From: an uncultured virus (IMG/VR IMGVR_UViG_3300046810_000373)
Lineage: Duplodnaviria; Heunggongvirae; Uroviricota; Caudoviricetes; Schitoviridae
Virus record (IMG/VR): IMGVR_UViG_3300046810_000373
Direction: 5' to 3' (one strand)
DNA: 64,000 bases
Both the position numbers and the translations under genes were made by a program. Positions 5,941-37,557 of the stretch are shown piece by piece (position 1 is the stretch's first letter; every line of letters begins with the position of its first letter). The notes under the pieces are model-generated. The model saw only the letters and a program-made list of their open reading frames with translations, was not told the DNA's origin and ran no database searches.

Positions 5941-5999
5941 GGAGACTTTCTAATATTTTCAGTTTGCCTCCGGAACAAATCAGGAGCTTAAGTCATTCC

Positions 6000-6146: not shown

Positions 6147-6177
6147 TTAATAGCTGGGATATCAGAAAAGAATATAA

Positions 6178-6414: not shown

Positions 6415-6443
6415 ATCCAGATAATATTATGAGATAATAACCC

Positions 6444-7809: not shown

Positions 7810-7840
7810 CCCCCTAGCCACGTCTCGGTTCAGTGAAGTG

Positions 7841-7875
7841 AGCCCCCGCTCCCGATAACGGAGCGGGGGCTTTTC
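7841..7875 (+). terminator. Intrinsic terminator after hns
   Basis: AGCCCCCGCTCC-cgataac-GGAGCGGGGGCT then TTT. Confidence 0.85.
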
Positions 7876-7939
7876 TGTATTTACCCAAATGATTTTCAGT
7901 GATAATCAAACTTAATAAGCCCAAAAATCAGAGCCCAAC

Positions 7940-9238
7940 ATGACCGTGACGATTTCCGACCTGAATCCGGGTCAGCAGAAGGCTGCTGATGCGTTCTTCG
8001 AGTTTCTGTTTTCGGACGATCGAGAGTTCATCATTTCCGGGCCCGCCGGCGTCGGCAAGACCCATCTGATGACCTACATCATCGACCAGACAATGCCCCG
8101 CTATCTCGAGACCTGTAAGCTCCTCGGAATCCCGGCCGAGTATGACGAAGTTGTCATGACCGCCACCACGAACAAGGCGGCCGAAGTTCTGGCTCAGGCC
8201 ACCAAGCGCCCCACCTCAACGGTGCATTCCTTCCTGTCTCTCAAAGTCAAGGACGATTACGCCACGGGCGGCACAACCCTGACCAAGACCCGTCAGTGGA
8301 AGGTTCACGAGCGGAAGATCCTCTTCGTCGACGAATGCTCCATGATCGATACCCCCCTCTGGATGGCGATCCAGGAAGGATTGATCAAATCCAAGATCGT
8401 CTACGTCGGAGACCATTCCCAGTTGGCTCCGGTCACTGAGGCCTTGAGCCCCATCTACAAGCACGATTCCCCCTTCTTCGAGCTTACCCAGCCGATGCGG
8501 AACGCCAATCAGCCGGCGCTCATGGCTGTTTGCCAGCAGCTCCGGGAGACCGTGCAGACCGGGGAGTTCAAGCCGATCCGGATTGTGCCTGGTGTCATCG
8601 ACCATCTCGACGACTATCAGATGCAGCAGACGATCGATGTGGCCTTCCAGGAGCAGACCCACCAGGCGCGCATACTCGGCTACACCAACCGTCGCGTCGT
8701 CGAGTATAATGATCACATCCGCGGTCTGCGCTCCCTATCCCGAGAATTCCAGGTCGGCGAGCTCCTGGTGAACACCAGCGCAATCCAGCTTTCCAATGCC
8801 ATGCTGCCAGTGGAAGCAGGGGTGGAGATCACCTGCAATCGCGGAGCCAGCACGGTCAATATCGCTCCCGATGTCGACTTGCTCGTCAATCACCTGGATT
8901 TCAAAGCGGACTGCGGCGAGGTCTTCACCAATGTTCCGACGTTTGTCGACCGGGATCATTTCGACGCCCTGGTCAAATATTACGGCAAGCAGAAGAACTG
9001 GGATCGCTATTTCTTCCTGAAGAACAGCTTTGTCGATCTTCGGCCTCGAGATGCGGCCACCGTGCACAAATCCCAGGGCTCAAGCTATGACGCGGTCTTC
9101 GTAGACCTTGGAAACATCTCGACCTGTCATCAGTCCGACCAGGTTGCGCGCATGCTTTATGTCGCGTTTTCCCGCGCTCGTTCGCGCGTCTTCATGTATG
9201 GGGATTTATCTCCAAAATACGGAGGATTAATCTCTTAA
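7940..9238 (+). CDS. SF1 DNA helicase (Dda/RecD-like, N4 gp37-like)
   Basis: GPAGVGKT, VDECSM, VGDHSQL, TVHKSQGS, LYVAFSRAR. Confidence 0.93.
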   Translation: MTVTISDLNPGQQKAADAFFEFLFSDDREFIISGPAGVGKTHLMTYIIDQTMPRYLETCKLLGIPAEYDEVVMTATTNKAAEVLAQATKRPTSTVHSFLSLKVKDDYATGGTTLTKTRQWKVHERKILFVDECSMIDTPLWMAIQEGLIKSKIVYVGDHSQLAPVTEALSPIYKHDSPFFELTQPMRNANQPALMAVCQQLRETVQTGEFKPIRIVPGVIDHLDDYQMQQTIDVAFQEQTHQARILGYTNRRVVEYNDHIRGLRSLSREFQVGELLVNTSAIQLSNAMLPVEAGVEITCNRGASTVNIAPDVDLLVNHLDFKADCGEVFTNVPTFVDRDHFDALVKYYGKQKNWDRYFFLKNSFVDLRPRDAATVHKSQGSSYDAVFVDLGNISTCHQSDQVARMLYVAFSRARSRVFMYGDLSPKYGGLIS

Positions 9239-9267
9239 TAATCCATAAGAGATTAAGGAGAAAATAC

Positions 9268-9783
9268 ATGAAGGATGGCAACTGGCTCTCCCCGTTCATC
9301 CGAGAACTGACTCTCGAAATATTCAAGTCCGAGACCAGGCGTTTGGCCAAAAGGGAAATCAGCTTTGTCACTGAGAACGCCAGTCTCGGTGGCCCGGCTG
9401 ACGGGTTCTATTTTCGAGGACGCCTGTTTTCGGATCTGGCTCCGCATCTGCGAGCCAAAGGCCAGAAGGGAAATCTCCACACATCTTTGATTTCCGCCGT
9501 CCATGAGTATCTTCAAGACGAGAAAACCACCCTCTTCGATAAGGGCCGTGTTCAGCAGGCGCTCGTCGTCATCCTCAAAGATTGCAAGTCTGCGCAGGAT
9601 GTTTTCGACGCTGTCCCTAATACGCTGCACGAGGCGGTCAGGTCTCTCCTCCCCGAAACACGGGACCTGACCCGCACTCGCGAGGAAGCCTGGACCGTCC
9701 TTGATAATCCTCGCGCTTATCAGCAATATCTAAAATTGCGCGAGAAAATTGAATTCTACAATATCGCAAAGCTGCTTTATTAG
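9268..9783 (+). CDS. Conserved hypothetical protein (N4 gp38 position)
   Basis: AAGGAG RBS; lies between helicase and DNA polymerase. Confidence 0.7.
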   Translation: MKDGNWLSPFIRELTLEIFKSETRRLAKREISFVTENASLGGPADGFYFRGRLFSDLAPHLRAKGQKGNLHTSLISAVHEYLQDEKTTLFDKGRVQQALVVILKDCKSAQDVFDAVPNTLHEAVRSLLPETRDLTRTREEAWTVLDNPRAYQQYLKLREKIEFYNIAKLLY

Positions 9784-9832
9784 ATAATCGAGCAGCTTTT
9801 CCGGCCGCTTTTGATGCCTATGAGAAAGCCCG

Positions 9833-12502
9833 ATGAAGTACCTCACTTTCGGTTCGCAAGAGAGCACATCCTACCGGATCTGCATTCTGGTCAACGACAT
9901 CCGAAGGGATGAGATCAAGCGTACCTATATCGATCCTTACGGGCTCGACCCCGAGGAGATTATCGTGATCTCCCTTCACCAGGCACCCGGCAAAAAGAAG
10001 ACGCCGGCTGCCGAGATGAAAGCCTATGTCGCCGACGAGCTCAGCTCGGTCTTGGCGGAGCTCAAGGTCGAGTTCTTGCTCGTTGCCGACGGCGACTATT
10101 TCAAGACCTTCACGGGAGCCAGCAAGGTCGATGCCATGCTCGGCTACATGCTGCCCTCCAAGCTCACAGACCAGTATGTCGCCTATGTGCCGAACTTCCG
10201 GACTGTCTTCTATGACCCGATCAAGGTGACCGAGAAGGTCGCTCTCGGTGTCAATGCACTCAAGAGCTGGATGGCAGGAACCTATCAGGACCCTGGTGCC
10301 AAGATTATCGAGTTCGCTGAGTACCCGGCTAGGGTGGAAGATGTCGAATCCTGGCTCATTGCCCTACATAAGTGCCCTGCCCTCTCCTGTGATATCGAAG
10401 GATTTGGGCTGAAGCATTACGACGCCGGCATCGGCACGATCACGTTCTGCTGGAACAAGACATCCGGCATCGCTTTCCCGATCGATATCCACGGCGATCA
10501 TGTCTACGCCATGCGGGTTCGCAAGCTGCTGAAGCAGTTCTTCGAGGCCTATCAGGGCACGTTGATCTGGCACAGCATTTCCTATGACGTGTACGTCCTG
10601 GTTTACCAGCTCTTCATGGATCACCTCCTCGACAACGAGGGCATGCTCCGCGGGCTCGAGATTCTCCTCCCCAAGGGCCGCTGGCACTGCACCAAGCTGA
10701 TCTCCTATCTCGCGACCAACTCCTGCGCCGGGAACAGGCTCTCCCTCAAGATCCAGGCCCAGGAATACGCCGGCGACTATGCCCAGGAGGAGATCAAGGA
10801 TATCCGCAAGATCCCCCTCCCCGCTCTGCTCCAGTACAATCTCGTCGACGGTCTCTCGACCTGGTTCGTGTTCGAGAAGCACTGGGGGACACTCGTTGCT
10901 GATCAACAGCTCGAGATCTACGAGACGATCTTCCAGCCGGCCACTGTCGACATCGTTCAGATGCAGCTTACCGGCATGCCGGTCGATATGGCCCAGGTCC
11001 TCGAGGTCGAGCAGATCCTGACCATCATCCTGGATGACGCCGTCAAGCAGATGCAGGGCAATCCAAAGCTCGGCGCCTACGTGCACCACCTCAAGGAGGA
11101 ACACGTTCGCAAGCGCAATGAGAAGCTCAAGACCAAGCAGATTTCCCTGGCAGACGATGAGGTCGCCAAGGTCGCTTTCAATCCGCGTTCTCCGGACCAG
11201 CTCCAGGAGCTCCTATTTGAGCACCTGGCTCTCCCGATCCTGGGGTACACCGATTCCAAGCAGCCCTCGACCAAGGGCGAGTTCTTGAAGTCGCTCCAGA
11301 AACACACGCAGGATCCTGACGTCATTGCCCTGCTCGAAGCTCTTGTGGGCTTCAAGGCGGTCGACAAGATCCTCGGGACCTTCATCGAGGCCCTGAAGAA
11401 CTCCCAGCTCGGCAACGATGGCTGGTATTATCTCTTCGGGAACTTCAATCTCGGTGGCACCGTCTCCGGCCGGCTCTCGAGCTCGGGCCCGAATCTCCAG
11501 AACCTGCCAGCCAATGTTGCCATGCTGATCTCCGCGGCGATCGCAGCCCTTCTGGGTGAGCGCATCGCCAAGTTCGTCAGCAAGGGCAAGCTCCATTTGG
11601 GCAAGCTCATCAAGAGCTGCTTCAAGGCACCGCCTGGCTGGTTCTTCTGTGGCATCGATTTCGCGTCCCTCGAGGACCGGATCTCGGCCCTGACGACAAA
11701 AGACCCCAATAAGCTCAAGGTCTACACCGACGGCTATGATGGGCATTCCCTACGGGCCCACAGCTATTTCGGCGATCAGATGACCGGCATCGACCCTAAC
11801 CAGGTCGACTCGATCAACTCGATCGCCGATCTCTATCCGGTGTTCCGACAGGAGTCGAAAGTCCCAACCTTCCTGCTCACTTACGGCGGAACTCATATCG
11901 GGATCATGGCTCAGATGGCCTGGCCGAAAGCCAAGGCTCAGGACGTCGAAGCTCGTTATCACGAGCTCTATAAGGTGTCCGACCAATGGGTGGCCTCCAA
12001 GGTCAACCAGGCGTGTCGGGATGGCTATGTCACGGCCGCGTTCGGTTTGCGCGTTCGCACGCCCCTGCTCTCGCAGGTTGTTCGTGGAACCAGTAAGACA
12101 CCGTTCGAGGCCGAGGCTGAAGGCCGGACCGCCGGCAATGCTCTCGGGCAATCCTGGTGCCTGCTCAATAGCCGAGCTGGCTCCGAGACGATGGGCAAGG
12201 TCAGGTCGAGCCAATATCGACATGACATTAAGCCCTGCGCTCAGATCCACGATGCTCAGTATTTCCTGGTTCGCGACGATATCGAGGCGGTGCGCTTCGC
12301 CAATGAGAACGTCGTCGCAGCCTGCCAGTGGCAGGACCATCCAGACATCTGGCACGAGGAAGTCAAGCTCGGGGGGGAATTCTCGATCTTCTACCCGACC
12401 TGGGCTGACGAGGTCGGCATTCCCAACAACGCGACGGTGGCTGAGACCTATGCCGCCTTCGAGAAACACATCCTCAAGCTGGAGACGAAGAAGGCGGCCT
12501 GA
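9833..12502 (+). CDS. Family A DNA polymerase (N4 gp39-like)
   Basis: Exo motif CDIE; TVSGRLSSSGPNLQN; motif A DFASLEDR; motif B RQESKVPTFLLTYG; motif C QIHDA. Confidence 0.96.
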   Translation: MKYLTFGSQESTSYRICILVNDIRRDEIKRTYIDPYGLDPEEIIVISLHQAPGKKKTPAAEMKAYVADELSSVLAELKVEFLLVADGDYFKTFTGASKVDAMLGYMLPSKLTDQYVAYVPNFRTVFYDPIKVTEKVALGVNALKSWMAGTYQDPGAKIIEFAEYPARVEDVESWLIALHKCPALSCDIEGFGLKHYDAGIGTITFCWNKTSGIAFPIDIHGDHVYAMRVRKLLKQFFEAYQGTLIWHSISYDVYVLVYQLFMDHLLDNEGMLRGLEILLPKGRWHCTKLISYLATNSCAGNRLSLKIQAQEYAGDYAQEEIKDIRKIPLPALLQYNLVDGLSTWFVFEKHWGTLVADQQLEIYETIFQPATVDIVQMQLTGMPVDMAQVLEVEQILTIILDDAVKQMQGNPKLGAYVHHLKEEHVRKRNEKLKTKQISLADDEVAKVAFNPRSPDQLQELLFEHLALPILGYTDSKQPSTKGEFLKSLQKHTQDPDVIALLEALVGFKAVDKILGTFIEALKNSQLGNDGWYYLFGNFNLGGTVSGRLSSSGPNLQNLPANVAMLISAAIAALLGERIAKFVSKGKLHLGKLIKSCFKAPPGWFFCGIDFASLEDRISALTTKDPNKLKVYTDGYDGHSLRAHSYFGDQMTGIDPNQVDSINSIADLYPVFRQESKVPTFLLTYGGTHIGIMAQMAWPKAKAQDVEARYHELYKVSDQWVASKVNQACRDGYVTAAFGLRVRTPLLSQVVRGTSKTPFEAEAEGRTAGNALGQSWCLLNSRAGSETMGKVRSSQYRHDIKPCAQIHDAQYFLVRDDIEAVRFANENVVAACQWQDHPDIWHEEVKLGGEFSIFYPTWADEVGIPNNATVAETYAAFEKHILKLETKKAA

Positions 12503-12534
12503 TAGCCGCCTTCCCTCCCCTGTCGAGCATCCCT

Positions 12535-12798
12535 ATGGCGACCCGATTTGAAAAATATCAGAAGATGGTAGCTGACCATCTTCAGCAAGCCCACCGGCGC
12601 GAACAGAAAGCCGAATGGCAGCGTCAATGGCGGGCGAAGAACCCCAACAAGCATAAAGTTCAGGTCCGTAAGGACTGGCTCTGCCGCAAGCTGAGAGAAG
12701 CCGGGATCACTGATCCGAACCCCGATCCTGTTCAAGCTTTGCAACGAGCTTCTGGAAGCCCTCCCGATAGGCAATCCGCTCGGCCTCGCACCATTTGA
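12535..12798 (+). CDS. Hypothetical basic protein
   Basis: 87-aa ORF; 3' end overlaps the convergent ParA-partner gene. Confidence 0.35.
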   Translation: MATRFEKYQKMVADHLQQAHRREQKAEWQRQWRAKNPNKHKVQVRKDWLCRKLREAGITDPNPDPVQALQRASGSPPDRQSARPRTI

Positions 12799-13009
12799 TG
12801 AAGCGATCCATGTCATCCATGTGGAGCCGCATCGTGAAGTTGTGGAGCTGAAGCGCTGTTCCTCGCCGGCGCCTGGGAGGCTCCCGCATCGGCTGGCGCA
12901 GGGTGAAACCCTGCTCGTCTGAGATCTGCACAGCCCGGTGCTCGAGGTCCTGCGGAACGTCCCGCATGCCCTTCAGACCGCCAAAGAAGTCCGTGTTGGT
13001 CTCGCTCAT
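12707..13009 (-). CDS. Small ParA-partner DNA-binding protein (ParG/ribbon-helix-helix-like adaptor)
   Basis: ATGA-coupled to parA; flexible N-terminus with RRRR followed by a strand-helix-helix pattern (LHNFTMRL..DMDRFIKWCE..YREGFQKLV). Confidence 0.65.
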   Translation of the reverse strand: MSETNTDFFGGLKGMRDVPQDLEHRAVQISDEQGFTLRQPMREPPRRRRGTALQLHNFTMRLHMDDMDRFIKWCEAERIAYREGFQKLVAKLEQDRGSDQ

Positions 13010-13686
13010 GCCGCTGTCCTCTTCTGAGCCAGTGCCTTCAGGGTCTCGACCACCTCATCCGTCAAGCGCTCGGCATTATCGATCGCCTGGGGCAAGGTCC
13101 CGAACTGCTTCGGGTCAAGGTCATAGAGCGAGCAGTTGAGCTCAAAAAGACTACGAAATGGTTCACGCTGATTGACCTGGGTTGCCAGGAACGGCAGCCC
13201 GTTGGCCTGCATCTGCTGAACCATACGTCGTGTCGCTTTCGTCGGCACGCTGTCGCTTGTACGGGTCATAACGATCCTGAACGGGATCTGCCGGCGGATA
13301 ACCTGTTCTTCCTGCTGGATCAGCCCGACCATGCGAGCAGCATGCTTGGCATCCAGGGCGCCTGGTTGCATGGGAATCAGCACCAGGTCAGCTCGCAGTA
13401 TCGACCGGCTCATGATGGTCGTGGCTGCGCCGGCGAGGTCAATGATGACCAGATCATTGCTGCTGGCTTCTTTGTCCAGAACGGAAATAAAAGCCTCTTC
13501 CGAGACATTTCCGACCACATTGATCGTTTTCTGGCCCTTGCCGTACCAGCCAAGCAGATCTGCATTTTTATCGGTGTCGATGATCGTTACCTTGGCTCCG
13601 CGGTGCGCCAGGGTGGTTCCAATCAGGACCGATGATGTGCTTTTGCCGGCACCGCCTTTCGGTGTACCCAAAACTAAGACCGCCAT
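13006..13686 (-). CDS. parA: ParA family partition ATPase (short, type Ib-like)
   Basis: Deviant Walker A KGGAGKST, IIDTD, VIIDLAG, ADLVLIPMQP; GGAGG RBS before ATG 13686. Confidence 0.92.
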   Translation of the reverse strand: MAVLVLGTPKGGAGKSTSSVLIGTTLAHRGAKVTIIDTDKNADLLGWYGKGQKTINVVGNVSEEAFISVLDKEASSNDLVIIDLAGAATTIMSRSILRADLVLIPMQPGALDAKHAARMVGLIQQEEQVIRRQIPFRIVMTRTSDSVPTKATRRMVQQMQANGLPFLATQVNQREPFRSLFELNCSLYDLDPKQFGTLPQAIDNAERLTDEVVETLKALAQKRTAA

Positions 13687-13826
13687 GTCGAGATCCTCCA
13701 TTTGATGGAGGGGAGCATGCAGGTCGAATATGAAGCCCCGGTTAACAGTTGATGACCGGCATGTTCGCAAATGTTCTGCCTTTCATTTGAAAGACTGTGA
13801 CAGGCAGACACAGTAGGAGAGGGCGC

Positions 13827-14126
13827 ATGGAGCGCGGAGACGGCAAGTTTCCTGGCATATATCGAGCTGCCAGAGAGATCGCTTATGACAATGGTGGTAT
13901 CCATCGGGACCGCAGCGAGCAGCAACAGTTCGAGGAATACGAGATCTGGCTGGCCAAGCAGGAGCCCCTGAAGTTGGGCCTGATCGATAGCTGGCTGATG
14001 AGCCTCACCGACTTCCAGCTCAATGTGGTTTGCACCGACGGAGAAGGGGAGGGTGCTCTCATTCTCAAGACGGCGCCGACTGGAACCGACGAGCTGCTGA
14101 ACGACTATTTCGATGAGGTCTGCTGA
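13827..14126 (+). CDS. Hypothetical protein
   Basis: AGGAGAGG RBS; stop/start coupled to the next ORF. Confidence 0.6.
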   Translation: MERGDGKFPGIYRAAREIAYDNGGIHRDRSEQQQFEEYEIWLAKQEPLKLGLIDSWLMSLTDFQLNVVCTDGEGEGALILKTAPTGTDELLNDYFDEVC

Positions 14127-14815
14127 TGCCGCGTTTCAACCCCCGCCAGCGCTGGCACGAAGATGATGACCATGGCCTGGGCTGGCCGGTGCGCGGATCG
14201 ACCGTAGCAGGCGTCAGTCTCCCGGACTGGGTCGAACTGCATCAGCTTGTCTTCGAGGAGGTGACGCGCCTACCTGTCGACCCCAAGGACGCCGACGCGG
14301 CCGCCTATCGGACGCGGCTCGCTGGTTTCGCCGGAGCCATCGTCCGGGGCCTCGCACTGCTGCTGATCGGCCGTCAGGGCTGGATCGAGGAGCAGGGCCT
14401 CCGCATGCGGCGCGGCAGGGGTGGGGAGGTGACCGTCGTCTCCGAGCACTACGGCGACATGCGCAACTTCCTGACCAATGCCTCGCTCGGCTGGTTCGAG
14501 CGGCACCCCTGCGCCAACCGTGATCCGGAGAAGGGTCCGCTGACCGAGCGCACGGTGCCGACCCCATACATGGCGAAGATCAAGACAATCCTGGAGATGC
14601 TGGAGAAGTCCTCCGATCGGCGAGAGAACACCTGGGATTACCGTGATCGGAGCATCGCAGAGCTGCGAGCCAACTACGATCACAAGTTCACTCTTAGCCG
14701 GCGACGTGCCGCGATCCTCTCCGACATCAAGTTCCGGAAGAATTTTGATGAAATATTCGGCTCCTTGCGATCCGCGGCCGCTGCTCGGCGCGACGAATCA
14801 TTGACGAGCAAGTGA
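14126..14815 (+). CDS. Hypothetical protein
   Basis: 229-aa ORF with high-GC codon usage, TGATG coupling. Confidence 0.65.
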   Translation: MPRFNPRQRWHEDDDHGLGWPVRGSTVAGVSLPDWVELHQLVFEEVTRLPVDPKDADAAAYRTRLAGFAGAIVRGLALLLIGRQGWIEEQGLRMRRGRGGEVTVVSEHYGDMRNFLTNASLGWFERHPCANRDPEKGPLTERTVPTPYMAKIKTILEMLEKSSDRRENTWDYRDRSIAELRANYDHKFTLSRRRAAILSDIKFRKNFDEIFGSLRSAAAARRDESLTSK

Positions 14816-14835
14816 CCTATCTGCGTCATGGTTCA

Positions 14836-14864
14836 TTGACCGCGACTCGGCACTAGCCGATTCT
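14836..14864 (+). promoter_or_regulatory. Sigma70-type promoter candidate upstream of the rep-like gene
   Basis: TTGACC-N17-GATTCT. Confidence 0.5.
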
Positions 14865-14904
14865 CTCGGTCGAGCAAATCAGGAACCTGCCGCGATGACG
14901 TAAT

Positions 14905-14990
14905 CTGAAAAGCAAAGAGCCCAGAGGTTGGCGCCTCTGAGCTCTTGGGCCCGAACCAAATCGGGAATGTCTGTGGTCTCGACAATCACG
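14905..14990 (-). ncRNA. Candidate counter-transcribed RNA in the rep leader
   Basis: Hairpin AAGAGC-C-CAGAGG-ttggcg-CCTCTG-A-GCTCTT (14915-14946) followed on the - strand by TGCTTTT; - strand TTGCGC-N17-AAATGT near 14991-15019. Confidence 0.45.
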
Positions 14991-15078
14991 ACATTTCCAC
15001 AGTTTGACGCGGAGCGCAAGCGTTCCGTGATCGGGCGGCTTTTGCCGTCAGCGGCCAACCCGAAGGGGTGGCTGAACG

Positions 15079-15765
15079 ATGATCTATGCCCTCACGCTGG
15101 AAGCGATCCAGCGGTCTCGGACAGGCCAATGCCTGGACGCGATCTCGCGCGCTCTTTGGAGCCAGGAGAACTCTCTCTCCGATGCCCAGGCTCAGAGCTT
15201 AGCCGAGGCCATACAGGCACGTCGAATCATTTTGCGAGAGCAGGGGACTCGAGCTCCGATCCCTGTCAAGCCGAAAGCTCCCAGAAACCGCACAGCCTCT
15301 CTTTTGCGCCGGCGCCAGCTCGCAGCTTCTGGACCGATGCCCCCATCAATGGCAGCCAGGTTCACCACGGCCGAGCTTGCTGCGTTGAAGATTGTCGCTG
15401 ATGAGATCCGAGCCAAAGGAATCTGCGGCTTGGTGCTCGACGCGATCGCAGCCAGGGCAGGGGTATCCAAGCGCTCAGTCCAGAACGCTTTGCGCGAAGC
15501 CGAAGCTCTCGGCTATCTCACCATACGCCGGCGCCGACTTCCTGGTCAGCTCAAAAATCTGCCCAATCTGGTCTCGATCATTGCGATCGAATGGCTCTCC
15601 TGGCTTAAGGTGGCAAAGCCTTCCACACCACGGGTAAAACCAAAAATACCCTCTCTAAGGAACCTAAGTCATGAATTGTTTCGAGATTTTCAAATCGATG
15701 AAGGCCGGTGTCGCCAGACCGTTTCGCATCATCGAGACCAACGAGACCTTCGATGGGCCCCGTAG
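15079..15765 (+). CDS. HTH protein, putative plasmid replication initiator
   Basis: RRRQLAASGPMPP..FTTAELAAL..IAARAGVSKRSVQNALREAEALGYLTI..NLPNLV..WLSWL, a winged-HTH Rep-like pattern recalled from alphaproteobacterial plasmids; next to parA. Confidence 0.65.
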   Translation: MIYALTLEAIQRSRTGQCLDAISRALWSQENSLSDAQAQSLAEAIQARRIILREQGTRAPIPVKPKAPRNRTASLLRRRQLAASGPMPPSMAARFTTAELAALKIVADEIRAKGICGLVLDAIAARAGVSKRSVQNALREAEALGYLTIRRRRLPGQLKNLPNLVSIIAIEWLSWLKVAKPSTPRVKPKIPSLRNLSHELFRDFQIDEGRCRQTVSHHRDQRDLRWAP

Positions 15766-16036
15766 CCGCATTCTGGATGGCACCTTCATGAGCTGGCGAG
15801 AAGCGGCAGACCACATTCGCACTGTCGATCCCACAATCCATGCCTCGCACGAGTTGACCATCTATTACGCCGACGGCAGCACAATCCTTCATCGTGAGGA
15901 GTTCTATGGCTCAGATATTGAAGCCCAGAGACAACTGACCACGATCTGGAATGACAAAACGCCAGCGAATGGTACTGGCTTCAAGGCCACTGCCCGCCGT
16001 TATGGCGATCCGAAACCTTTCAACACCATCGGGTGA
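15671..16036 (+). CDS. Hypothetical protein
   Basis: AAGGA upstream of the ATG; first of a tightly packed gene run. Confidence 0.55.
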   Translation: MNCFEIFKSMKAGVARPFRIIETNETFDGPRSRILDGTFMSWREAADHIRTVDPTIHASHELTIYYADGSTILHREEFYGSDIEAQRQLTTIWNDKTPANGTGFKATARRYGDPKPFNTIG

Positions 16037-16039
16037 ACC

Positions 16040-16375
16040 ATGGGCAAATTCGCCAACGGGCTGACCGAGTCAGCCAGTAATCTCACGCATATTCCGATCA
16101 AGCAGCCCTGGACCGGACAATCCGAGTTCGAGGCTCTCGGGCATGAGGTGCCTAATTTCCGCCGTGAGGCTGGAAACACGCATCTGAAGGAGATGGGCTT
16201 CACGAACGCCGATCAGCGCTTCACGATCGTGCAGACCATGGCCGGCCACATCGAGCGGGATAATCCTCATATGGCCCTGGAAGATGCTCTGAAACAGGGG
16301 GTTGATGCCGCTGGCTGCTATCGCCTGTTGAGCGTCATGCTTTGCACACCACGGCCCGCGGAAAAAACCTCATGA
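16040..16375 (+). CDS. Hypothetical protein
   Basis: Packed ORF, ATGA-coupled to DUF3768 gene. Confidence 0.6.
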   Translation: MGKFANGLTESASNLTHIPIKQPWTGQSEFEALGHEVPNFRREAGNTHLKEMGFTNADQRFTIVQTMAGHIERDNPHMALEDALKQGVDAAGCYRLLSVMLCTPRPAEKTS

Positions 16376-16710
16376 CCGAGGAAGAGAAAATCAAGCGGAT
16401 CCGCGAGCTCAACGATCAACTCCGGACCACAGGCCTCGGGAATGGTCGGGCTGTAGCCGTTGCCTCATTGGCTCAGGCAGATCCTGACCTGATCTCCAAA
16501 GTCGTCACCGCAATGCGGGAATTCACCGACTTCAACGAAGGCGATGATCCCTACGGAGAGCACGATTTTGGAGCCTTCACCGTCGACAATGAGCGCTTCA
16601 TATTCAAAATCGACTATTTCGCCCTCGACGAGCTGCATGGCAGCGAACATCCCGAGGACCCGACTGTGACAATTCGAGTTTGCACCCTGCTTTACGCATC
16701 GGATTACTAG
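16372..16710 (+). CDS. DUF3768 domain protein
   Basis: IRELNDQLR, DDPYGEHDFGAF, FKIDYF, TIRVCTLLYASDY. Confidence 0.88.
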   Translation: MTEEEKIKRIRELNDQLRTTGLGNGRAVAVASLAQADPDLISKVVTAMREFTDFNEGDDPYGEHDFGAFTVDNERFIFKIDYFALDELHGSEHPEDPTVTIRVCTLLYASDY

Positions 16711-16782
16711 CTATGGGCCTTAGAAAACATATGGCCGATATTATCGGCGACTCCTTTCAGAACCATGTGATGGAGGAAGTGC

Positions 16783-17136
16783 ATGATGTACGCTCTTTCC
16801 GCTTCACCAATGTCCACCTCAGGCGATCCATGGACATCGTCGCACCTGGGCACACAATTCAGCGGGCCTCGATGGAGCGCACTTCAGCCTATTCCTTCGG
16901 TCTCCTGGCTGACCCGACATCCGGAATACAACAACACCGAGCACGGCAAGGATCCCGGCGCCATTGGCTGGAGAGGCCACCACTTCACCACCATGTGTTT
17001 CGACAGTCGGGGTCGACGCTGCCGACAAGGTTCCGACTTTATGCGAGCCAGAGATGAGGGAACATTCCCCGTCATCTGGATCTGGCCGGACCAGATCTGG
17101 GAGCTGAAGCTCCGCCCTGAGTTCCGATTCGCATAA
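16783..17136 (+). CDS. Hypothetical phage protein
   Basis: GGAGG RBS; CFDSRGRRC..GSDFMRARDEGTFPV motif seen in small phage proteins. Confidence 0.6.
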   Translation: MMYALSASPMSTSGDPWTSSHLGTQFSGPRWSALQPIPSVSWLTRHPEYNNTEHGKDPGAIGWRGHHFTTMCFDSRGRRCRQGSDFMRARDEGTFPVIWIWPDQIWELKLRPEFRFA

Positions 17137-17448
17137 GGTATCTTATGGAACTAAGCCGCTGATATCATTAACCAATTATCGTTTTCATTATCTATGATTA
17201 ACGAAATTGTTTTCTGAGAAAACGGCTGACATTATCGTTTGATTTGCACTGCACAAAAGCCTGGCAAATCCAATCTCGGGTATTTTCAATACCCTTGAGA
17301 AAACGATCGCAACTCTTTTTGCCCTTGGCAAAACCCAAATCTCCTGTCTAAGTTCGATTAAGTCGAATATCGGATCGATAATGCCAAAACCCAGATTGTT
17401 TTCTGGGCTCGGCCTTCTTGTGCCCGCATTCCCCCGAAGGAAAGACCC

Positions 17449-17772
17449 GTGAAACCCAGCGTCTCCAAATCCCATTACTGGCTCGTCGCCGGCCAGGTGC
17501 ATTTCACCCTCAGCGAGGGCGCATCGTCGCGCAATCTGAACACCCTGGTTCAGACCAAGGAGCCCTACTTCTCTCGGGCTGAGCTGGGGAAAGCCCAGCA
17601 AATCCTGCAAGTTCGCCTCATGCGGGAGACTTTCCCCGAGAATGCGATCCCGGCAGACGTGAAGGTCACCGACGTCTTCATCCTCTCGGTCAGTGCCCTC
17701 GGCCTGATGTCCGATGAGGAATTCCAGAAGGGTTACGATGCCCTGGTGAAGGAAGCCAGCGCACCACACTGA
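17449..17772 (+). CDS. Conserved N4-like hypothetical protein upstream of gp42
   Basis: GTG start with AAGGA RBS, phage codon usage, followed by a terminator. Confidence 0.65.
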   Translation: MKPSVSKSHYWLVAGQVHFTLSEGASSRNLNTLVQTKEPYFSRAELGKAQQILQVRLMRETFPENAIPADVKVTDVFILSVSALGLMSDEEFQKGYDALVKEASAPH

Positions 17773-17819
17773 GCGCGAATATCCTTCATAACCCGTTTCG
17801 AATTATCTTCACAAAGCAA

Positions 17820-17853
17820 AAATAAGGGGGTAACGATAACCCCCTTATTTCTC
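17820..17853. terminator. Bidirectional intrinsic terminator
   Basis: AAATAAGGGGGT-aacgata-ACCCCCTTATTT. Confidence 0.8.
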
Positions 17854-17897
17854 TGCGCCCATTTTCATCATAATCCAGCGGATATGCCGGGGCTCCC

Positions 17898-18887
17898 GTG
17901 AAAATCACCAATCAATTCGATATCTCATTGCCGATGGCAGTCTGGCTGCTGACCGATGAGTACGACTACGTCAACGAGCCGAATTACATTTCGGCCACCT
18001 CTCTGCTGAAGCCGCTGAAGCAGCTCATCCTGTCCAAGCGGGTCGAGACCCAGGATCTCGCGGTTGATCTCTCGACGAAGATCGCATCACGGGTCGGCCA
18101 TGCCGTTCATGATTCGATCGAAAAGGCCTGGAAAATTGCCGGGCCCGAGCAGATGGCGAAACTGGGATATCCGAGCTCGGTCACTGAGCGCCTGATGGTC
18201 AATCCCAGTGATGAGGATCTCCGAGCCAGGAACGACATCATCCCGATCTGGTTCGAGCAGCGCAGCTTTCGATCCATCGAGATCAACGGCACCACCTATA
18301 AGATCGGCGGCAAGTTCGATCTGGTGCTGGACGGTCGGCTCTTCGACTTCAAGAGCACCTCGGTCTGGACCTATATCAAGCGCCAGAAGGATGAAGACTA
18401 TTCCAAGCAGGGCTCGATCTACCGCTGGCTGAACCAGAGCCTGATCACCTCGGATCACATCTTCATCCAGTTTCTCTTCACCGATTTCCAGCGCCGCGAA
18501 ACCAAGACCACGCCGGGGTATCCCCAGGCGAAGGTCATGGAACATCCAGTCGAGCTGCTCTCGGTCGCCGAAACGGAGCGCTTCATCGTCGAAAAGCTCA
18601 AGCTGATCGAGCGTTACAAGGACGCTCCGGAATCTGAAATTCCGGAATGTTCCGACAAGGATCTCTGGCGCTCGGATCCGGCGTTCAAATACTATTCCGA
18701 CCCCAACAAGACGGCGGGTCGGTCCACCCGCACATTCGACAACATGGTAGAAGCTCAGACTTTCATGAGAGAGAAGGCAGGCAAGGGCGTTATCAAGACC
18801 GTTCCCGGCGACGTGAAGGCTTGTGAATACTGCCCCGCTTTCTCCATCTGCCGCCAGAAGGATCAATATTTTGTTGGATCTATCTAA
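17898..18887 (+). CDS. PD-(D/E)XK Cas4-like nuclease (N4 gp42-like)
   Basis: ISATSLLK, GHAVH, FEQR, GKFD..DFKSTS, C-terminal CEYC..C. Confidence 0.85.
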   Translation: MKITNQFDISLPMAVWLLTDEYDYVNEPNYISATSLLKPLKQLILSKRVETQDLAVDLSTKIASRVGHAVHDSIEKAWKIAGPEQMAKLGYPSSVTERLMVNPSDEDLRARNDIIPIWFEQRSFRSIEINGTTYKIGGKFDLVLDGRLFDFKSTSVWTYIKRQKDEDYSKQGSIYRWLNQSLITSDHIFIQFLFTDFQRRETKTTPGYPQAKVMEHPVELLSVAETERFIVEKLKLIERYKDAPESEIPECSDKDLWRSDPAFKYYSDPNKTAGRSTRTFDNMVEAQTFMREKAGKGVIKTVPGDVKACEYCPAFSICRQKDQYFVGSI

Positions 18888-21021
18888 GGTCAACCACAAT
18901 CCCGTGTTGGAGAGCATCGTCGATGTTCTCTGCAACAAGACCCAGCAGATGGATCGAGGCTTTTTCCGGGCCGAAGTAGCCTACTATCTCGGCAAGCTAG
19001 CATCATCGATGCGAGCCACGATCGTCACCAAGGATCGCGGCGAGATCCCGGTGAACATTTATGTGCTGGCTCTGGCGACGTCCGGCTTCGGCAAGGGCCA
19101 CTCCGTTGGTGTAATTGAGAATGAGTTCCTGGCCGGCTTCAAGAAGCGGTTTATGGACGACACCTTCGGAGTGCTGTCCGAGACCAATCTCTGGGTGATC
19201 GCCAATAGCCGAGCTGCTCGCAACTCGACGGACCAGAACGAGGAATTCGAGAAGGTTCAGAAGGAATGGCGCCAGGCTGGCTCCTACCCCTTCACCTTCG
19301 ACAGCGGCACACCGCCGGCGGTCAAGCAGCTCCGCGAGAAGCTGCTCATGTCCAACTGCGGCTCGATCAATCTCCAGATCGACGAAATCGGATCCAACCT
19401 CATTGGCTCCGTCGACATTCTGAACGTGTTCCTGGAACTCTACGACCAGGGCATGGTCAAGACCAAGCTGATCAAGAACACAGCGGACAACACCCGCAAC
19501 GAAGAGATCGACGGAAAGACACCGACCAACATGCTGTTGTTCGGGACCCCTTCCAAGCTCCTCGACGGCGGCCAGACCGAGGACCAGTTCTATTCGTTCC
19601 TCGACACAGGCTATGCCCGCCGCTGCATCTTCGGCTACGGCCAACACAAGAGAGCCCTCGACACCCCCGAGGAGATCTTCAAGCGCCTGACGCAGCCGGC
19701 CAACACCAACGTCATCAACCATTGGGCTGGGCATTTCACCCAACTCGCCGACCCGGCCATGTTCAACTGGAAGATGGTGGTTGAAGACGGTGTCGCCATC
19801 CAGCTCCTGTCGTACAAGATCGACTGTGAGCACCGAGCCGAGGAACTGGCCGAACACGAAGAGGTCAAGAAAGCCGAGCTATCGCATCGGTATTTCAAAG
19901 CTCTCAAGCTCGCCGGCGCCTTTGCTTTCGTGGATGCATCCACCACGATCGAGGAAGAGCACCTGCTATCAGCGATCAAGCTCGTCGAGGAATCGGGAGA
20001 GGCCTTCTTCAAGATTCTCAATCGGGACAAGAGCTATGTGAAGTTGGCCAAATACATTGCCAACTGCGGCATGGAGGTGAACCACGCCGATCTTCTGGAC
20101 GCCCTGCCCTTCTATCCGAAGAGCTATGGCCCGAGGAATGACATGATCACCCTGGCCACGAGCTGGGGCTACAAGAAGAACATCATCATCAAGAAGTCGT
20201 TCGTCGACGGGATCGAGTTCTTCAAGGGGGAAACCCTGGCCGAGACCAATCTCGAAAAGTGCCGGGTCTCTTATTCCGAGCACTGGGCCTATTCCTATCT
20301 TAAGGAAGAGGTCCCCTTCGACAAGCTGCACATGCTGACCCAGGCTCCGGGCATGCACTGGGCGAACCACCACTTCAAGGGTGATCACCGCTCCGAAGAG
20401 AACGCCATACCCGGCTTCAACATGGTGGTGATCGACGTCGACGAGGGTATCCCCCTGGCGACCGTCCATGACCTCATGAAGGAATACAAGTTCCTGACCT
20501 ACACCACCAAGCGCCATCAGAAGGATGGCAATGGTGATCGTTTCCGGCTGATCCTTCCGATCAACTATTACCTCGAGCTGGACAACGAAGAGTACAAGGA
20601 ATTCATGCGGTCAGTCTTCACCTGGCTCCCATTCCAGACGGATGAGAGCTCGGAAAAACGAGAGAAGAAGTGGGAAACCTTCGATGGAGGGCAGTACCAT
20701 TACAATCTCGAAGGCGGTCTGCTCGATGCTTTGGACTTCATCCCGAAGACCAGCCGCAACGAGGGTTTCAAGAACCAGACGAAGGATCTTCAATCCCTCG
20801 ACAGCCTCGAGCGCTGGTTCGCACAGCGCATGGTGACCAACTCGAACCGTAACAACCAGATGCTCAAGTTTGCCTTGATGCTGGTCGACAGCGGCTTCGA
20901 CTTCCCCACTGTCCGGCAGCATGTGCTCGCCTTCGACCAGAAGCTTTCCGACCCTCTTGGGGAAGACGAGCTCAACCGATCGGTGCTGGTCACCGCGGCC
21001 AAGCGCTACCAGAAGCCCTGA
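18871..21021 (+). CDS. DNA primase (N4 gp43-like)
   Basis: ATSGFGKG P-loop-like motif, IDEIG, AEP-like IDVDEG, YTTKRH, RFRLILP, C-terminal RNNQML; probable TTG start after AAGGA. Confidence 0.88.
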   Translation: MLDLSKVNHNPVLESIVDVLCNKTQQMDRGFFRAEVAYYLGKLASSMRATIVTKDRGEIPVNIYVLALATSGFGKGHSVGVIENEFLAGFKKRFMDDTFGVLSETNLWVIANSRAARNSTDQNEEFEKVQKEWRQAGSYPFTFDSGTPPAVKQLREKLLMSNCGSINLQIDEIGSNLIGSVDILNVFLELYDQGMVKTKLIKNTADNTRNEEIDGKTPTNMLLFGTPSKLLDGGQTEDQFYSFLDTGYARRCIFGYGQHKRALDTPEEIFKRLTQPANTNVINHWAGHFTQLADPAMFNWKMVVEDGVAIQLLSYKIDCEHRAEELAEHEEVKKAELSHRYFKALKLAGAFAFVDASTTIEEEHLLSAIKLVEESGEAFFKILNRDKSYVKLAKYIANCGMEVNHADLLDALPFYPKSYGPRNDMITLATSWGYKKNIIIKKSFVDGIEFFKGETLAETNLEKCRVSYSEHWAYSYLKEEVPFDKLHMLTQAPGMHWANHHFKGDHRSEENAIPGFNMVVIDVDEGIPLATVHDLMKEYKFLTYTTKRHQKDGNGDRFRLILPINYYLELDNEEYKEFMRSVFTWLPFQTDESSEKREKKWETFDGGQYHYNLEGGLLDALDFIPKTSRNEGFKNQTKDLQSLDSLERWFAQRMVTNSNRNNQMLKFALMLVDSGFDFPTVRQHVLAFDQKLSDPLGEDELNRSVLVTAAKRYQKP

Positions 21022-21072
21022 GCGATCAGGGTTTCTTTCTCCGGCTTTTGAACCTCCAACCAGAGATCCAAT

Positions 21073-21804
21073 ATGGATGAAATCAATAACCAGCTCGTCT
21101 TGATCTCGGGAGAGTCGGGCTCCGGCAAATCGGCCAGCCTGCGGAATATCCAGAACCAGGATAAATGGATGTACCTGAATTGCGAGGCGGGCAAGCGCCT
21201 GCCTTTCAAGAACCAGTTCCAGACATTCAACATCGTTGACCCCTACCAGGTCTGGGAGGGCTTCGATCATGCCATGGCCAACCCCGACAAGTTCCATGGC
21301 ATCGCGCTCGATACTGCCACCTTCCTGATGGAGATGATGGAAAGTGTGCATGTCCTGACGTCGAACGACACCCAGAAAGCCTGGGGAAATTATGCCCAGT
21401 TCTGGAAGCACCTGATGCAAAAGAAGGTGGTCGAGTTCGGCAAGCCCGTGCTGATCTTCGGTCACACCAAGACCGAGCTCGATGAGCAAACCCATACGAT
21501 GAAGACCTCGGTTCCAGTCAAGGGTTCGCTCCGGAACAACGGCATCGAGGCCTACTTTTCGACGGTGGTCTCCACCAAGAAGGTCTCTCTCAACGAGCTG
21601 GAGAAGTATGGCTCCAAGCTCCTCACCATCACGGAGGAGGATAAGGATCTCGGCTATAAACACGTCTTCCAGACCCGTCTCACGAAGCAAACCGTAGGGG
21701 AGCGGATCCGGTCGCCGATGGGGATGTTCAACAAGGAACACACCTACATCGACAATGACTGCCAGCTTTTGCTGGGTCATCTGAAGGAATTCTACGGGGA
21801 TTAA
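21073..21804 (+). CDS. AAA ATPase (Sak4-like, N4 gp44-like)
   Basis: GESGSGKS, ALDTAT, IFGH, IRSPMGMF. Confidence 0.85.
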   Translation: MDEINNQLVLISGESGSGKSASLRNIQNQDKWMYLNCEAGKRLPFKNQFQTFNIVDPYQVWEGFDHAMANPDKFHGIALDTATFLMEMMESVHVLTSNDTQKAWGNYAQFWKHLMQKKVVEFGKPVLIFGHTKTELDEQTHTMKTSVPVKGSLRNNGIEAYFSTVVSTKKVSLNELEKYGSKLLTITEEDKDLGYKHVFQTRLTKQTVGERIRSPMGMFNKEHTYIDNDCQLLLGHLKEFYGD

Positions 21805-21854
21805 TTTCTCCGCAGATTATACACCAACCTCTCTCGAAAATAGGACATCGAACT

Positions 21855-22610
21855 ATGAGTCTCTTCAACAATCTGACCACCGACGGCCTCGAGGAAGCCC
21901 AGGATCGTCTCGGCGGTTTCTCCCGGCTGGAATCGGGTGCCTATACCGGCAAGATCAAGGCGGCCTATGCCGGCGTTGCCGCCAACTCCAAGGCCCAGAG
22001 CATCACGGTCATCCTGGCTCACGGCAAGGATGGCAAGGAGGAGTATCGCGAGACCCTCTGGATCACCAACAAGAATGGCGAGAACTTCTTCGTCAACAAG
22101 GGTGGCGACGGCAAGAAATCTCCCCTGCCCGGCTTCACCATCGTCAATGACCTGTGCCTGGTCACGACGAACAAGCCGCTCGCCGAGCAGCCGACGGAAG
22201 AGAAGGTCATGAACATCTATGACCCGGACGCCAAGAAGGAGCTGCCCAAAGCGGTCCAGATGCTCGTCGATCTGCTCGACACCGAGGTGACCTTCGGCAT
22301 CATCAAGCAGACGGTGAACAAGCAGGAGAAGGACAGCGCCGGCAACTACCAGGACACCGCCGAAACCCGTGACGAGAATTCCACGGACAAGATCTTCCAC
22401 TACCCCTCGAACCTGACGGTCAACGAGGCCCTCAACAAGATCACCACAGCGACGTTCTACGGCGCCTGGGTCGAGAAGAACAAGGGCGTCACCCGCGATC
22501 GCACCAACAAGGATCTGGCCAAGAACGGCGGCAAGGCTGGACGCCCCGGTATGCCTCCCCAGGCAGCGACCGCCGGCGGCAAGACGTCCTCCCTGTTCGG
22601 AGCTCGCTGA
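21855..22610 (+). CDS. Single-stranded DNA-binding protein (N4 gp45-like)
   Basis: DRLGG..LESGAY, YRETLWITN, LPGF, C-terminal SSLF; synteny. Confidence 0.85.
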   Translation: MSLFNNLTTDGLEEAQDRLGGFSRLESGAYTGKIKAAYAGVAANSKAQSITVILAHGKDGKEEYRETLWITNKNGENFFVNKGGDGKKSPLPGFTIVNDLCLVTTNKPLAEQPTEEKVMNIYDPDAKKELPKAVQMLVDLLDTEVTFGIIKQTVNKQEKDSAGNYQDTAETRDENSTDKIFHYPSNLTVNEALNKITTATFYGAWVEKNKGVTRDRTNKDLAKNGGKAGRPGMPPQAATAGGKTSSLFGAR

Positions 22611-22647
22611 GTTCGATCGAACTGGACGCCGACTCTGATTAGTGTAG

Positions 22648-22682
22648 AAATACCCCCGCGTTAATCCGCGGGGGTATTTTTA
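22648..22682. terminator. Intrinsic terminator after SSB
   Basis: AAATACCCCCGCG-ttaatc-CGCGGGGGTATTT. Confidence 0.85.
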
Positions 22683-22687
22683 ACATA

Positions 22688-23668: not shown

Positions 23669-23690
23669 TCTCCCAACCACGGGAGATCCC

Positions 23691-34865: not shown

Positions 34866-34884
34866 CCTCGGATTATCAACAGAA

Positions 34885-37548: not shown

Positions 37549-37557
37549 GATCCCTTA

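Follow-up and report, generated by a model that had tools for sequence, protein, structure and literature searches.

N4-like phages are textbook lytic phages and popular candidates for therapy and biocontrol. Why, then, should one of them carry genes of plasmid maintenance? The question is raised by a stretch of 64,000 nucleotides (IMG/VR record IMGVR_UViG_3300046810_000373), the whole of which was analysed and is called the window here; its source is a rhizosphere N4-like (Schitoviridae) phage with a contig of 74,366 bp. Between the genes for the DNA polymerase and a gp42-type exonuclease lies an insert that an original prediction, made from the letters alone, had read as a plasmid maintenance island: parA, a coupled small partner gene, a Rep-like helix-turn-helix (HTH) gene, a DUF3768 gene and open reading frames (ORFs) of no known kind, by which the phage was thought to persist as an extrachromosomal prophage. 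Our analysis indicates that the insert is very probably a plasmid-type module kept under selection. Its best explanation, to which we give about an even chance of being right, is that it would let the phage persist as an episome. Three lines of evidence lead there: a partition ATPase with its small partner, a winged-helix protein whose family is at home on plasmids of Hyphomicrobiales, and an N4-like genome that stands as a plasmid in a cultured isolate with an analogous gene set of its own.

The insert behind the DNA polymerase

The closest named backbones are those of Sinorhizobium phage ort11 (Huelvavirus) and Rhizobium phage RHph_X2_28B (Xoxocotlavirus). In both, the polymerase gene is followed by a gp40-like gene, one small ORF and the gp42-type exonuclease gene, and the window shares their gene order around the insertion point. 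Neither has the insert: a gap of 43 nt separates the gp40-like gene from the polymerase gene in ort11, and one of 77 nt in RHph_X2_28B, versus 4,946 nt in the window (12503–17448). Every component listed in the original prediction was found in this gap, in the order ORF87 (plus strand), 100-aa ORF and ParA (both minus), ORF109 and ORF229 (plus), a 263-nt gap, the HTH gene (plus), ORF121, ORF111 and the DUF3768 gene (all plus), a 426-nt stretch that lacks a good ORF, and a 312-nt AT-rich stretch. With the flanking genes, the features are:

9833–12502, plus strand: N4-type DNA polymerase (PF00476, E 4.4e-38), left flank of the insert
12535–12798, plus strand: ORF87, probable small gene whose tail overlaps the 3' end of the partner gene; no family match
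12707–13009, minus strand: 100-aa ParA partner, candidate centromere-binding protein; its ATG overlaps the parA stop (ATGA)
13006–13686, minus strand: ParA-type partition ATPase, 226 aa from the ATG at 13686 (ORF open to 13770); phrog_164, E 1.8e-33
13687–13796, no strand: divergent parA/ORF109 control region; 1.8% divergence versus 2–21% in the neighbouring genes
13797–14126, plus strand: ORF109, first of the ORF109–ORF229 pair, with an ATGA-type overlap at 14126; no family match
14126–14815, plus strand: ORF229, hypervariable (20.9% nucleotide divergence, 73% amino acid identity, an in-frame 18-nt indel)
14816–15078, no strand: leader of the HTH gene; 1.1% divergence, between genes diverged by 7% and 21%
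15079–15765, plus strand: winged-helix protein, candidate replication initiator or regulator; phrog_15967, E 9.3e-50
15671–16036 and 16040–16375, plus strand: ORF121 and ORF111, with 90% and 89% amino acid identity in the IMG/VR variant
16342–16710, plus strand: DUF3768 protein (PF12599, E 3.3e-25; 88.3 bits against a cut-off of 25)
16711–17136, no strand: deletion remnant that keeps the 5' end of a 337-aa gene and the 3' end of a 93-aa gene; 13% divergence
17137–17448, no strand: AT-rich stretch with interlaced short repeats; 0.96% divergence, no counterpart in ort11 or RHph_X2_28B
17449–17772, plus strand: gp40-like gene (phrog_5974, E 1.9e-19), 36% identical to its ort11 homologue, right flank
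17898–18887, plus strand: gp42-type exonuclease (phrog_2139, E 2.5e-133), right flank
24168–34865, minus strand: 3,565-aa ORF, predicted virion RNA polymerase, in the position of the ort11 virion RNA polymerase

The insert is not an assembly chimera. An IMG/VR contig of 27,183 bp, from a strain variant, aligns to window positions 3009–15664 and 16903–22708 at 96.7–96.8% identity and has the same junctions, which are also spanned by Logan contigs from the runs X2 (one of them 73,773 bp long) and X3; these variants are 94–97% identical, the X2 contig showing 473 differences across about 8 kb. Since all data are metagenome assemblies, a false join between a lytic N4-like phage and a plasmid has to be considered, and it is scarcely conceivable given that both junctions recur in contigs of separate origin, that read depth is flat over them in runs X1, X2 and X3, and that GC content does not break at the insert.

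The window phage itself belongs to the Schitoviridae, as judged from its core genes and their conserved order. Its polymerase is 58.9% identical to that of ort11 and 56–59% identical to those of N4-like phages of Rhizobium, Agrobacterium, Pseudomonas, Achromobacter and Erwinia, and relative to ort11 and RHph_X2_28B together the values are 58–59% for the polymerase, 68–69% for the primase, 59% for the helicase, 36% for the gp40-like protein and 50–53% for the exonuclease. PHROG scans of the window recovered an N4-type helicase, exonuclease, primase, Sak4-like protein, SSB, capsid (phrog_1357, E 1.5e-138), portal, terminase and gp49-like protein. None of 50,697 phage records is a near DNA match to the window, and the nearest genome record aligns to positions 20115–39535 only, which lie outside the insert.

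Comparison of the window with the IMG/VR strain variant allowed substitutions to be counted by codon position (first, second, third). The counts were 4, 3, 29 for the polymerase; 0, 1, 12 for the partner; 2, 1, 12 for parA; 2, 1, 13 for ORF109; 9, 3, 31 for the HTH gene; 41, 32, 71 for ORF229; and 3, 5, 16 for the part of ORF87 that overlaps no other gene (12535–12706). Because the substitutions are biased towards third positions, the polymerase and the insert genes read as coding and constrained. Divergence from the same strain amounts to 0.6–1.4% in the core flanks, 2.2% in parA, 4.3% in the partner gene, 7.3% in the HTH gene and 20.9% in ORF229.

A mere passenger, that is, a plasmid fragment which entered a hypervariable hotspot by illegitimate recombination, brings no benefit and is decaying, would account for several of these features. 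The insert diverges faster than the core (4–21% versus 0.6–1.4%) and its gene content varies between strains, with ORF111 missing from the X2 and X3 contigs (which skip 16034–16368) and two extra genes present between the HTH gene and ORF121 in the IMG/VR variant; in addition, a deletion in the window destroys the 337-aa gene, and DUF3768 is just 63% identical between strains. The left part of the insert speaks against such a passenger, as partner, parA, ORF109 and HTH gene are intact in every variant seen and carry the strong third-position bias, the parA-to-HTH core being retained in the IMG/VR contig and in those from X2 and X3. Three non-coding stretches are, moreover, more conserved than the genes beside them, and no insert-less variant was found among the contigs of four runs. 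We therefore regard the passenger explanation as unlikely and selection for a plasmid-type module as very probable.

The variable genes show what surrounds this core. ORF229, for which 9 relatives were found among 5.8 billion clusters and no usable match in the Atlas, owes its divergence either to an allelic exchange by recombination or to diversifying selection. At the DNA level, the DUF3768 gene resembles those of large Rhizobium phages. In the IMG/VR strain (12365–13663 of its contig) the 337-aa and 93-aa genes are intact, the window having lost about 876 bp, and the X2 contig is longer by 1,148 letters at 16880/16903. No convincing att-like direct repeats or terminal inverted repeats flank the insert, and the window contains no tRNA.

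The partition pair, the winged-helix protein and the conserved non-coding stretches

Partition ATPases of the ParA/ParF type (type Ib) are recognized by a deviant Walker A motif, KGGxxK[ST], together with the A' and B aspartates. The ParA of the insert has the full set of deviant Walker A, A' and B residues, is small and lacks an N-terminal DNA-binding domain; in an alignment of 18 sequences (the window protein and 17 relatives) K10, G11, G12, G14, K15, T17, D37, D39 and D83 are invariant. It scores above the cut-offs for Pfam AAA_31, CbiA, MipZ and VirC1 and reaches 108.6 bits with NCBIfam NF041546 ParA_partition, which is under the 180-bit equivalog cut-off, while PADLOC gave just a weak P-loop match, to this protein. 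Its start at 13686 has a Shine-Dalgarno sequence, GGAGGA, seven bases upstream. By its motifs and size, the protein is an intact small ParA ATPase, probably of the ParF type (type Ib).

The 100-aa partner has 15 relatives at 56–99% identity and is homologous to gp34 of Aurantimonas phage AmM-1 (E 1e-8). An ORF of 97–128 aa begins at the ParA stop in all 23 of the related ParA loci, some of which are duplicate cuts of one contig, and the ORFs in this position share a layout in which a GF-x-x-R-E/Q motif and an Arg-rich stretch precede a strand-like segment and two helices. The partner matched no family in Pfam, PHROGs, NCBIfam or PADLOC, and the Pfam models for ribbon-helix-helix (RHH) proteins matched none of the 21 members of the partner family. 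The AlphaFold2 (AF2) model is nevertheless confident over the last 40 residues, an extended segment and two helices, with a predicted local distance difference test (pLDDT) score of 94–97, and its best Foldseek rows are the RHH proteins Arc, AmrZ, ParG, CopG and MazE (target template modelling score 0.7–0.8, E of at least 0.78). We infer from the model that the C-terminus is a ribbon-helix-helix.

ParG, the partner protein of the TP228 type Ib system, has a flexible basic N-terminus and a ribbon-helix-helix C-terminus. The ParF–ParG pair resembles that of the window in its arrangement, a small ParA without N-terminal DNA-binding extension followed by a small protein whose C-terminus is, in the window, a putative RHH, and differs in that the window partner has no sequence match to ParG. 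ParA and its partner probably form a type Ib-like partition system and would interact physically. A prediction of their complex, with both proteins entered as alignments, scored 0.13 against a mark of 0.32 and counts neither way.

The protein encoded at 15079–15765 belongs to a family of 328 proteins (E ≤ 0.001) with the invariant blocks RRR-LAASGP-PP and F-T-x-E-L and an invariant helix-turn-helix. It matches Pfam HTH_36 slightly below the cut-off (E 7e-5) and several "replication initiation O-like" PHROGs weakly and over the helix-turn-helix only (E 1e-4 to 4e-6). In its AF2 model (mean pLDDT 79.9), an N-terminal domain of three helices is joined by a linker to a single winged helix (residues 88–180), after which comes a disordered basic tail. 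In structure, CodY (Z 10.9) is the nearest match to the winged helix, with ORC/Cdc6 winged helices, MarR, LexA and others at Z 7–9; a staphylococcal Rep–DNA complex (5kbj) stands at rank 22 of the Foldseek list. Sequence searches of the PDB with the protein and with its profile returned only winged helix-turn-helix (wHTH) domains of the CodY type (E 0.02–0.16), and the Atlas holds the protein in "hypothetical" clusters only. In its modelled fold it is a generic winged helix.

What sets the family apart is where it occurs. Homologues were found in 83 PLSDB plasmid records, 61 of them non-mobilizable, and in 4 phage records; the plasmid hosts are Methylobacterium (43), Shinella (12), Methylorubrum (6) and others. 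A further 79 loci in bacterial assemblies come nearly all from Methylobacterium and other Hyphomicrobiales, most of them on contigs of 1–90 kb, often several per genome, and one on a contig of 6.7 Mb. No Rep family was present among the 114 ORFs of eight Methylobacterium loci, where the neighbours are unrelated cargo. A scan of metagenomes with the single protein gave 427 pattern matches and no confirmed one; with the alignment as query it gave 77 loci, the best at 57% identity, and two contigs known from the family search, of 54,331 bp and 73,870 bp, were not among them. We take the phrog_15967 family to be a DNA-binding protein of plasmid backbones, for which replication initiator is the best single guess and regulator the alternative.

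The three non-coding stretches that diverge less than the genes around them contain candidate sites of action for these proteins. The parA/ORF109 control region has palindromes at 13695–13711 (CCTCCAT-TTG-ATGGAGG, over the parA Shine-Dalgarno sequence) and 13780–13793 and may be an operator or a centromere. The leader of the HTH gene contains a 13-bp hairpin (14915–14946) that on the minus strand is followed by a run of T and resembles a terminator, and of 200 shuffles just one folded as well as the minus strand (z -2.42). Antisense RNA against a leader is a feature of many plasmid copy-control systems, and this leader is a possible antisense-RNA or origin region. In the AT-rich stretch, the motif ATYGTTTTC, which was picked after the repeats had been seen, occurs in 4 copies within 226 nt (17178–17403); the whole window has 7 copies, with a mean of 0.96 in shuffles. 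An origin, an array of binding sites or a promoter region are candidate roles for this stretch. A sigma-70 promoter scan stayed at chance level (2 found, 1.6 expected), Rfam gave no match in the window at gathering scores and none in 12300–17600 at E ≤ 1, and there are no RNA sequencing runs among those listed as holding the region.

Related gene sets in plasmids and phages

The gene set of the insert recurs outside the N4-like phages. Aurantimonas phage AmM-1 (NC_027334) has all three genes in the order ParA (38% identity), 101-aa partner (31–41%) and HTH homologue (36%); unlike in the window, the three are on one strand, and the 47.8-kb genome is that of a tailed phage with tape measure and baseplate, unrelated to N4. 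Ochrobactrum phage POI1126 is similar in that an HTH homologue (36.8% over residues 77–201) directly follows the partition genes, and different in being a non-N4 podovirus with large partition proteins of the RepA/RepB type (ParA/ParB) and a putative integrase. Its restriction pattern showed that the prophage replicates as a plasmid, and the authors could identify no plasmid genes in it except the partition pair (Jaeckel et al., 2017; PMC5492332).

Small plasmids of Methylobacteriaceae and Methylocystaceae provide a second group. pSS37A-Re-6, pB146-3, pMNOD05 and pMRAD08 carry a member of the HTH family (39–48%) with a small ParA and its partner nearby, and MOB-suite assigns a replicon type to none of the four. 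They differ from the window in being plasmids of 14–21 kb that are not N4-like; head or terminase genes occur on two of them. For pSS37A-Re-6 (13,969 bp) no Pfam Rep family was found in the 17 annotated genes and no replicon type was assigned. In Methylocystis plasmids the HTH gene follows ParA, the partition protein and a small ORF. The divergent layout of the window, in which the HTH gene lies on the strand opposite to that of partner and parA, is also seen on pB146-3 and on G540:C3, an 18-kb plasmid-like contig that encodes an Ant-like antirepressor and an invertase as well. As an observation apart, pB146-3 (Methylorubrum, 16,127 bp) and pMRAD08 (21,022 bp) have partial sets of phage genes, comprising portal, terminase and head–tail connectors or terminase and an S49 protease, and may be mini phage-plasmids or satellites.

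A search with the window ParA found 51 phage records. By organism name, its relatives there are mostly annotated as partition proteins: in Gordonia and Mycobacterium phages ("ParA-like dsDNA partitioning"), in Vibrio phages VP585 and MAR, in D6 and in Zymomonas. As to the partner, none of 401 sampled genomes of one family encodes it and one of 401 of one order does, at 43% identity on a non-N4 contig of 18 kb. A 73%-identical partner is encoded on an NCBI-sourced contig of 73,335 bp, and the contig of 54,331 bp mentioned above has both an HTH homologue (59%) and a partner homologue (69%). Three IMG/VR contigs with a ParA of 38–39% identity had no N4-like genes in the stretches examined and were rejected as further examples.

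The comparison that bears most directly on an N4-like phage is that with Acinetobacter phage vB_IME_Ab2712 (OK149216.1, an UNVERIFIED record, Schitoviridae), whose source was hospital sewage. Its proteins are identical to those of the window at 57% (major capsid protein), 58% (large terminase subunit), 47% (portal and primase), 46% (exonuclease) and 41% (polymerase). Downstream of the polymerase it encodes a ParA (phrog_164, E 2.3e-42), a 102-aa ORF, a wHTH protein of 248 aa whose Rep/DnaD-like matches are weak, and a serine recombinase. A 16.6-kb stretch of this phage matches one plasmid record at 98.3%, that of pRBH2-3 (NZ_CP110465.1), a circular plasmid of 75,126 bp in the complete genome of the cultured A. 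baumannii RBH2, and the two are collinear at 99.1–99.6% over about 72.7 of 75.1 kb. The annotation of pRBH2-3 includes an "N4-gp56 family major capsid protein", DNA polymerase, a primase C-terminal domain protein, DNA-directed RNA polymerase, a 3,646-aa ORF and a "ParA family protein"; the 3,565-aa ORF of the window is 23.5% identical over 964 aa to the giant ORF of this genome.

Ab2712/pRBH2-3 and the window phage thus have in common an N4-type genome of about 75 kb with ParA, a coupled small ORF and a wHTH gene between the polymerase and the gp42-type exonuclease. In Ab2712 the three genes lie on one strand, a serine recombinase is present, and the interval from polymerase to exonuclease extends over 27 kb and also contains lysis and tail genes. 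The pRBH2-3 genome is a closed plasmid record from a cultured isolate, whereas the window phage is known from metagenomes. An N4-like genome therefore stands as a plasmid in a cultured isolate, with an independently acquired, analogous cassette in the same part of the genome.

Elsewhere in the window a few features of the backbone deserve mention in their own right. Both ort11 and RHph_X2_28B possess rIIA and rIIB, which they place between thymidylate synthase and the gp35-like/NTP pyrophosphohydrolase genes; in the corresponding stretch of the window (4761–7297) there are small ORFs only, and rIIA/rIIB might sit in the 7.5 kb of the source contig beyond the data examined. Between NTP pyrophosphohydrolase and helicase, the gene at 7294–7809 (plus strand) encodes a C-terminal H-NS DNA-binding domain (PF00816, E 4.2e-10; phrog_10171). 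A phage-borne H-NS-like protein could silence DNA, which is relevant if the phage has a quiescent state. At 1601–3396, two minus-strand genes within the plus-strand block, one thymidylate kinase-like (phrog_2107) and one for a DNA-repair exonuclease (phrog_704, E 6.8e-109), are possibly a second insertion. At 48995–50620, two long ORFs, of 539 aa on the minus and 526 aa on the plus strand, overlap almost completely; neither has a family, and from its position among late genes the minus-strand ORF is more likely to be real.

Possible persistence as an episome

How would such an insert serve the phage? A complete phage gene set and plasmid maintenance genes are found on one replicon. In the explanation that we prefer, the cassette would have been captured by the N4-like rhizosphere phage from the pool of plasmids and phage-plasmids of Hyphomicrobiales (Rhizobiales) and retained by selection. 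ParA and its partner would segregate the phage DNA via a centromere-like site near parA. The winged-helix protein would bind the conserved leader, the AT-rich repeats or both, and start or control host-dependent replication, which a possible antisense RNA would hold in check. Besides growing lytically, the phage would persist as a low-copy extrachromosomal episome, either as a phage-plasmid or in a stabilised carrier state.

A rival route to lysogeny would be integration. The prediction that the window holds no integrase was confirmed, none being found among the 93 ORF translations scanned. The 27-kb relative, 98% identical and including 2.9 kb beyond the window start, has no PF00589 match either, with the control positive in 14 of 14 genomes; this search left about 7.5 kb of the 74,366-bp source contig uncovered. 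Three assemblies have about the same size (74,366, 73,870 and 73,773 bp), that of a whole N4-like genome, so that flanking chromosomal DNA would find no space in them. The alternative of an integrating prophage, with integrase and host junctions beyond the window, could draw on those 7.5 kb and on the integrase-bearing N4-like genomes that have been reported (PMC10654107). We judge it very improbable in view of the assembly sizes, the passage of the window from late to early genes with no host DNA between them, and the missing PF00589 match. The adjacency of late and early genes, which lies near 57–58.6 kb, was correctly described in the original prediction; it is no evidence for a plasmid, because a circularly permuted assembly of a terminally redundant genome looks alike.

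The part of PMC10654107 that we could consult describes integrase-bearing N4-like genomes and integrated proviruses, and the words "plasmid" and "partition" do not occur in it; in the corresponding part of Pfeifer et al. (2021; PMC7969092), few phage-plasmids are podoviruses and "N4-like" does not occur. In the literature searched, with the supplementary tables of these two papers outside its scope, nothing was found on an N4-like or Schitoviridae phage-plasmid.

Several results weigh against persistence as an episome. The HTH protein matches no Rep family in Pfam or NCBIfam, and an initiator of the Rep_3/RepE type was rejected, as the protein has one winged helix and not two and matches neither PF01051 nor PF21205. 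Members of its family also occur beside other candidate initiators: pAU20rrn, the rRNA-operon plasmid of Aureimonas (9,393 bp), encodes a separate Rep_3 initiator in addition to an HTH homologue, and on G540:C3 the phrog_15967 gene is followed by a second wHTH gene (12458–13114) that matches "replication initiation" PHROGs (best E 5.3e-11). A ParA lies within 3 kb of the HTH homologue in 12 of the 45 loci with at least 3 kb on both sides and in 19 of all 79, counts that are lower bounds obtained by tblastn with 7 ParA queries. Repeat searches found no clear classical iteron array, DnaA boxes or parS array, and cargo that varies or decays makes up the right half of the insert. Neither repressor, antirepressor nor integrase was recognised in family scans of the window proteins, and an early programme driven by an injected virion RNA polymerase would have to be silenced.

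The remaining objections concern the state of the DNA and the strength of the precedent. All five of the listed runs that hold the region are rhizosphere metagenomes, and virions or a lytic population would yield identical contigs. An N4-type capsid gene occurs in one of 72,556 plasmid records, that of pRBH2-3, which could in principle be a carrier-state contaminant. The cassette of Ab2712 is, furthermore, not orthologous to that of the window: the ParA proteins are 30% identical, the partners are unrelated, and its wHTH protein belongs to phrog 28562, for which hhalign gives a probability of 18% that extends to the helix-turn-helix only. An extrachromosomal replicon in a cultured host or lysogen was not found among the sampled genomes and phage records.

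The original prediction therefore survives in part. Of the proposed module of ParA, small adaptor and Rep, the ParA, the partner and the plasmid-type context hold, and a recognisable Rep does not: the ORF at 15079 encodes a single winged helix of phrog_15967, is without a Rep match in Pfam or NCBIfam and belongs to a family that co-occurs with other Rep genes. The structure and profile searches that had been suggested for this ORF and for that at 12707 gave, for the latter, an RHH-like model and no family. The claim of an extrachromosomal prophage gains from the reality of the plasmid-type insert, the recurrence of its gene set and the N4-like plasmid record, and loses from the restriction of the data to metagenomes and from the lack of iterons.

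Another role is conceivable, in which the cassette of a strictly lytic phage serves the lytic cycle or an intracellular conflict and not lysogeny, be it by positioning or separating phage genomes, by interfering with plasmids or phage-plasmids (incompatibility or exclusion) or by regulating middle genes. The genes are selected, yet a lysogeny switch, a repressor and an integrase are not seen; the fold of the HTH protein is closest to transcription factors, namely CodY (Z 10.9) and MarR; the host clade is rich in plasmids with the same HTH family, so that competition is plausible; the AT-rich stretch immediately precedes core replication genes and may be a promoter region; and ORF229 is hypervariable, as conflict genes often are. 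On the other hand, most relatives of ParA in phage records are, by name and annotation, partition proteins, the sole N4-like genome with an analogous cassette is recorded as the plasmid of an isolate, and a three-gene cassette that recurs on small plasmids suits maintenance better than interference. We consider a lytic or conflict role somewhat unlikely, and persistence as an episome remains our preferred explanation.

A more specific version can be put forward tentatively, as a possibility with less than an even chance: that this N4-like lineage is temperate without integration and is kept as a plasmid prophage of about 74 kb by the ParA/RHH pair and a phrog_15967 initiator, with copy number set by an antisense RNA from the leader. 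If so, phrog_15967 would initiate replication of POI1126 and of many small, untyped plasmids in Methylobacterium, Methylocystis and other Hyphomicrobiales. A widespread, nameless family of plasmid genes would gain a function, and the untyped Methylobacterium replicons a handle. Taken together with Ab2712/pRBH2-3, it would also mean that on at least two occasions plasmid cassettes that are not orthologous entered Schitoviridae genomes at the same position.

For the N4-like phages as a group, lysogeny has so far been proposed by integration only in the literature searched. The idea of a plasmid route can be checked computationally on the public pair of Ab2712 and pRBH2-3, a plasmid record from an isolate and a 99%-identical phage from hospital sewage. 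If the route exists, predictions of lifestyle that are scored on integrases would miss such phages, and both the safety judgement for biocontrol of rhizobia and plant pathogens and the reading of N4-like abundance in soil would change.

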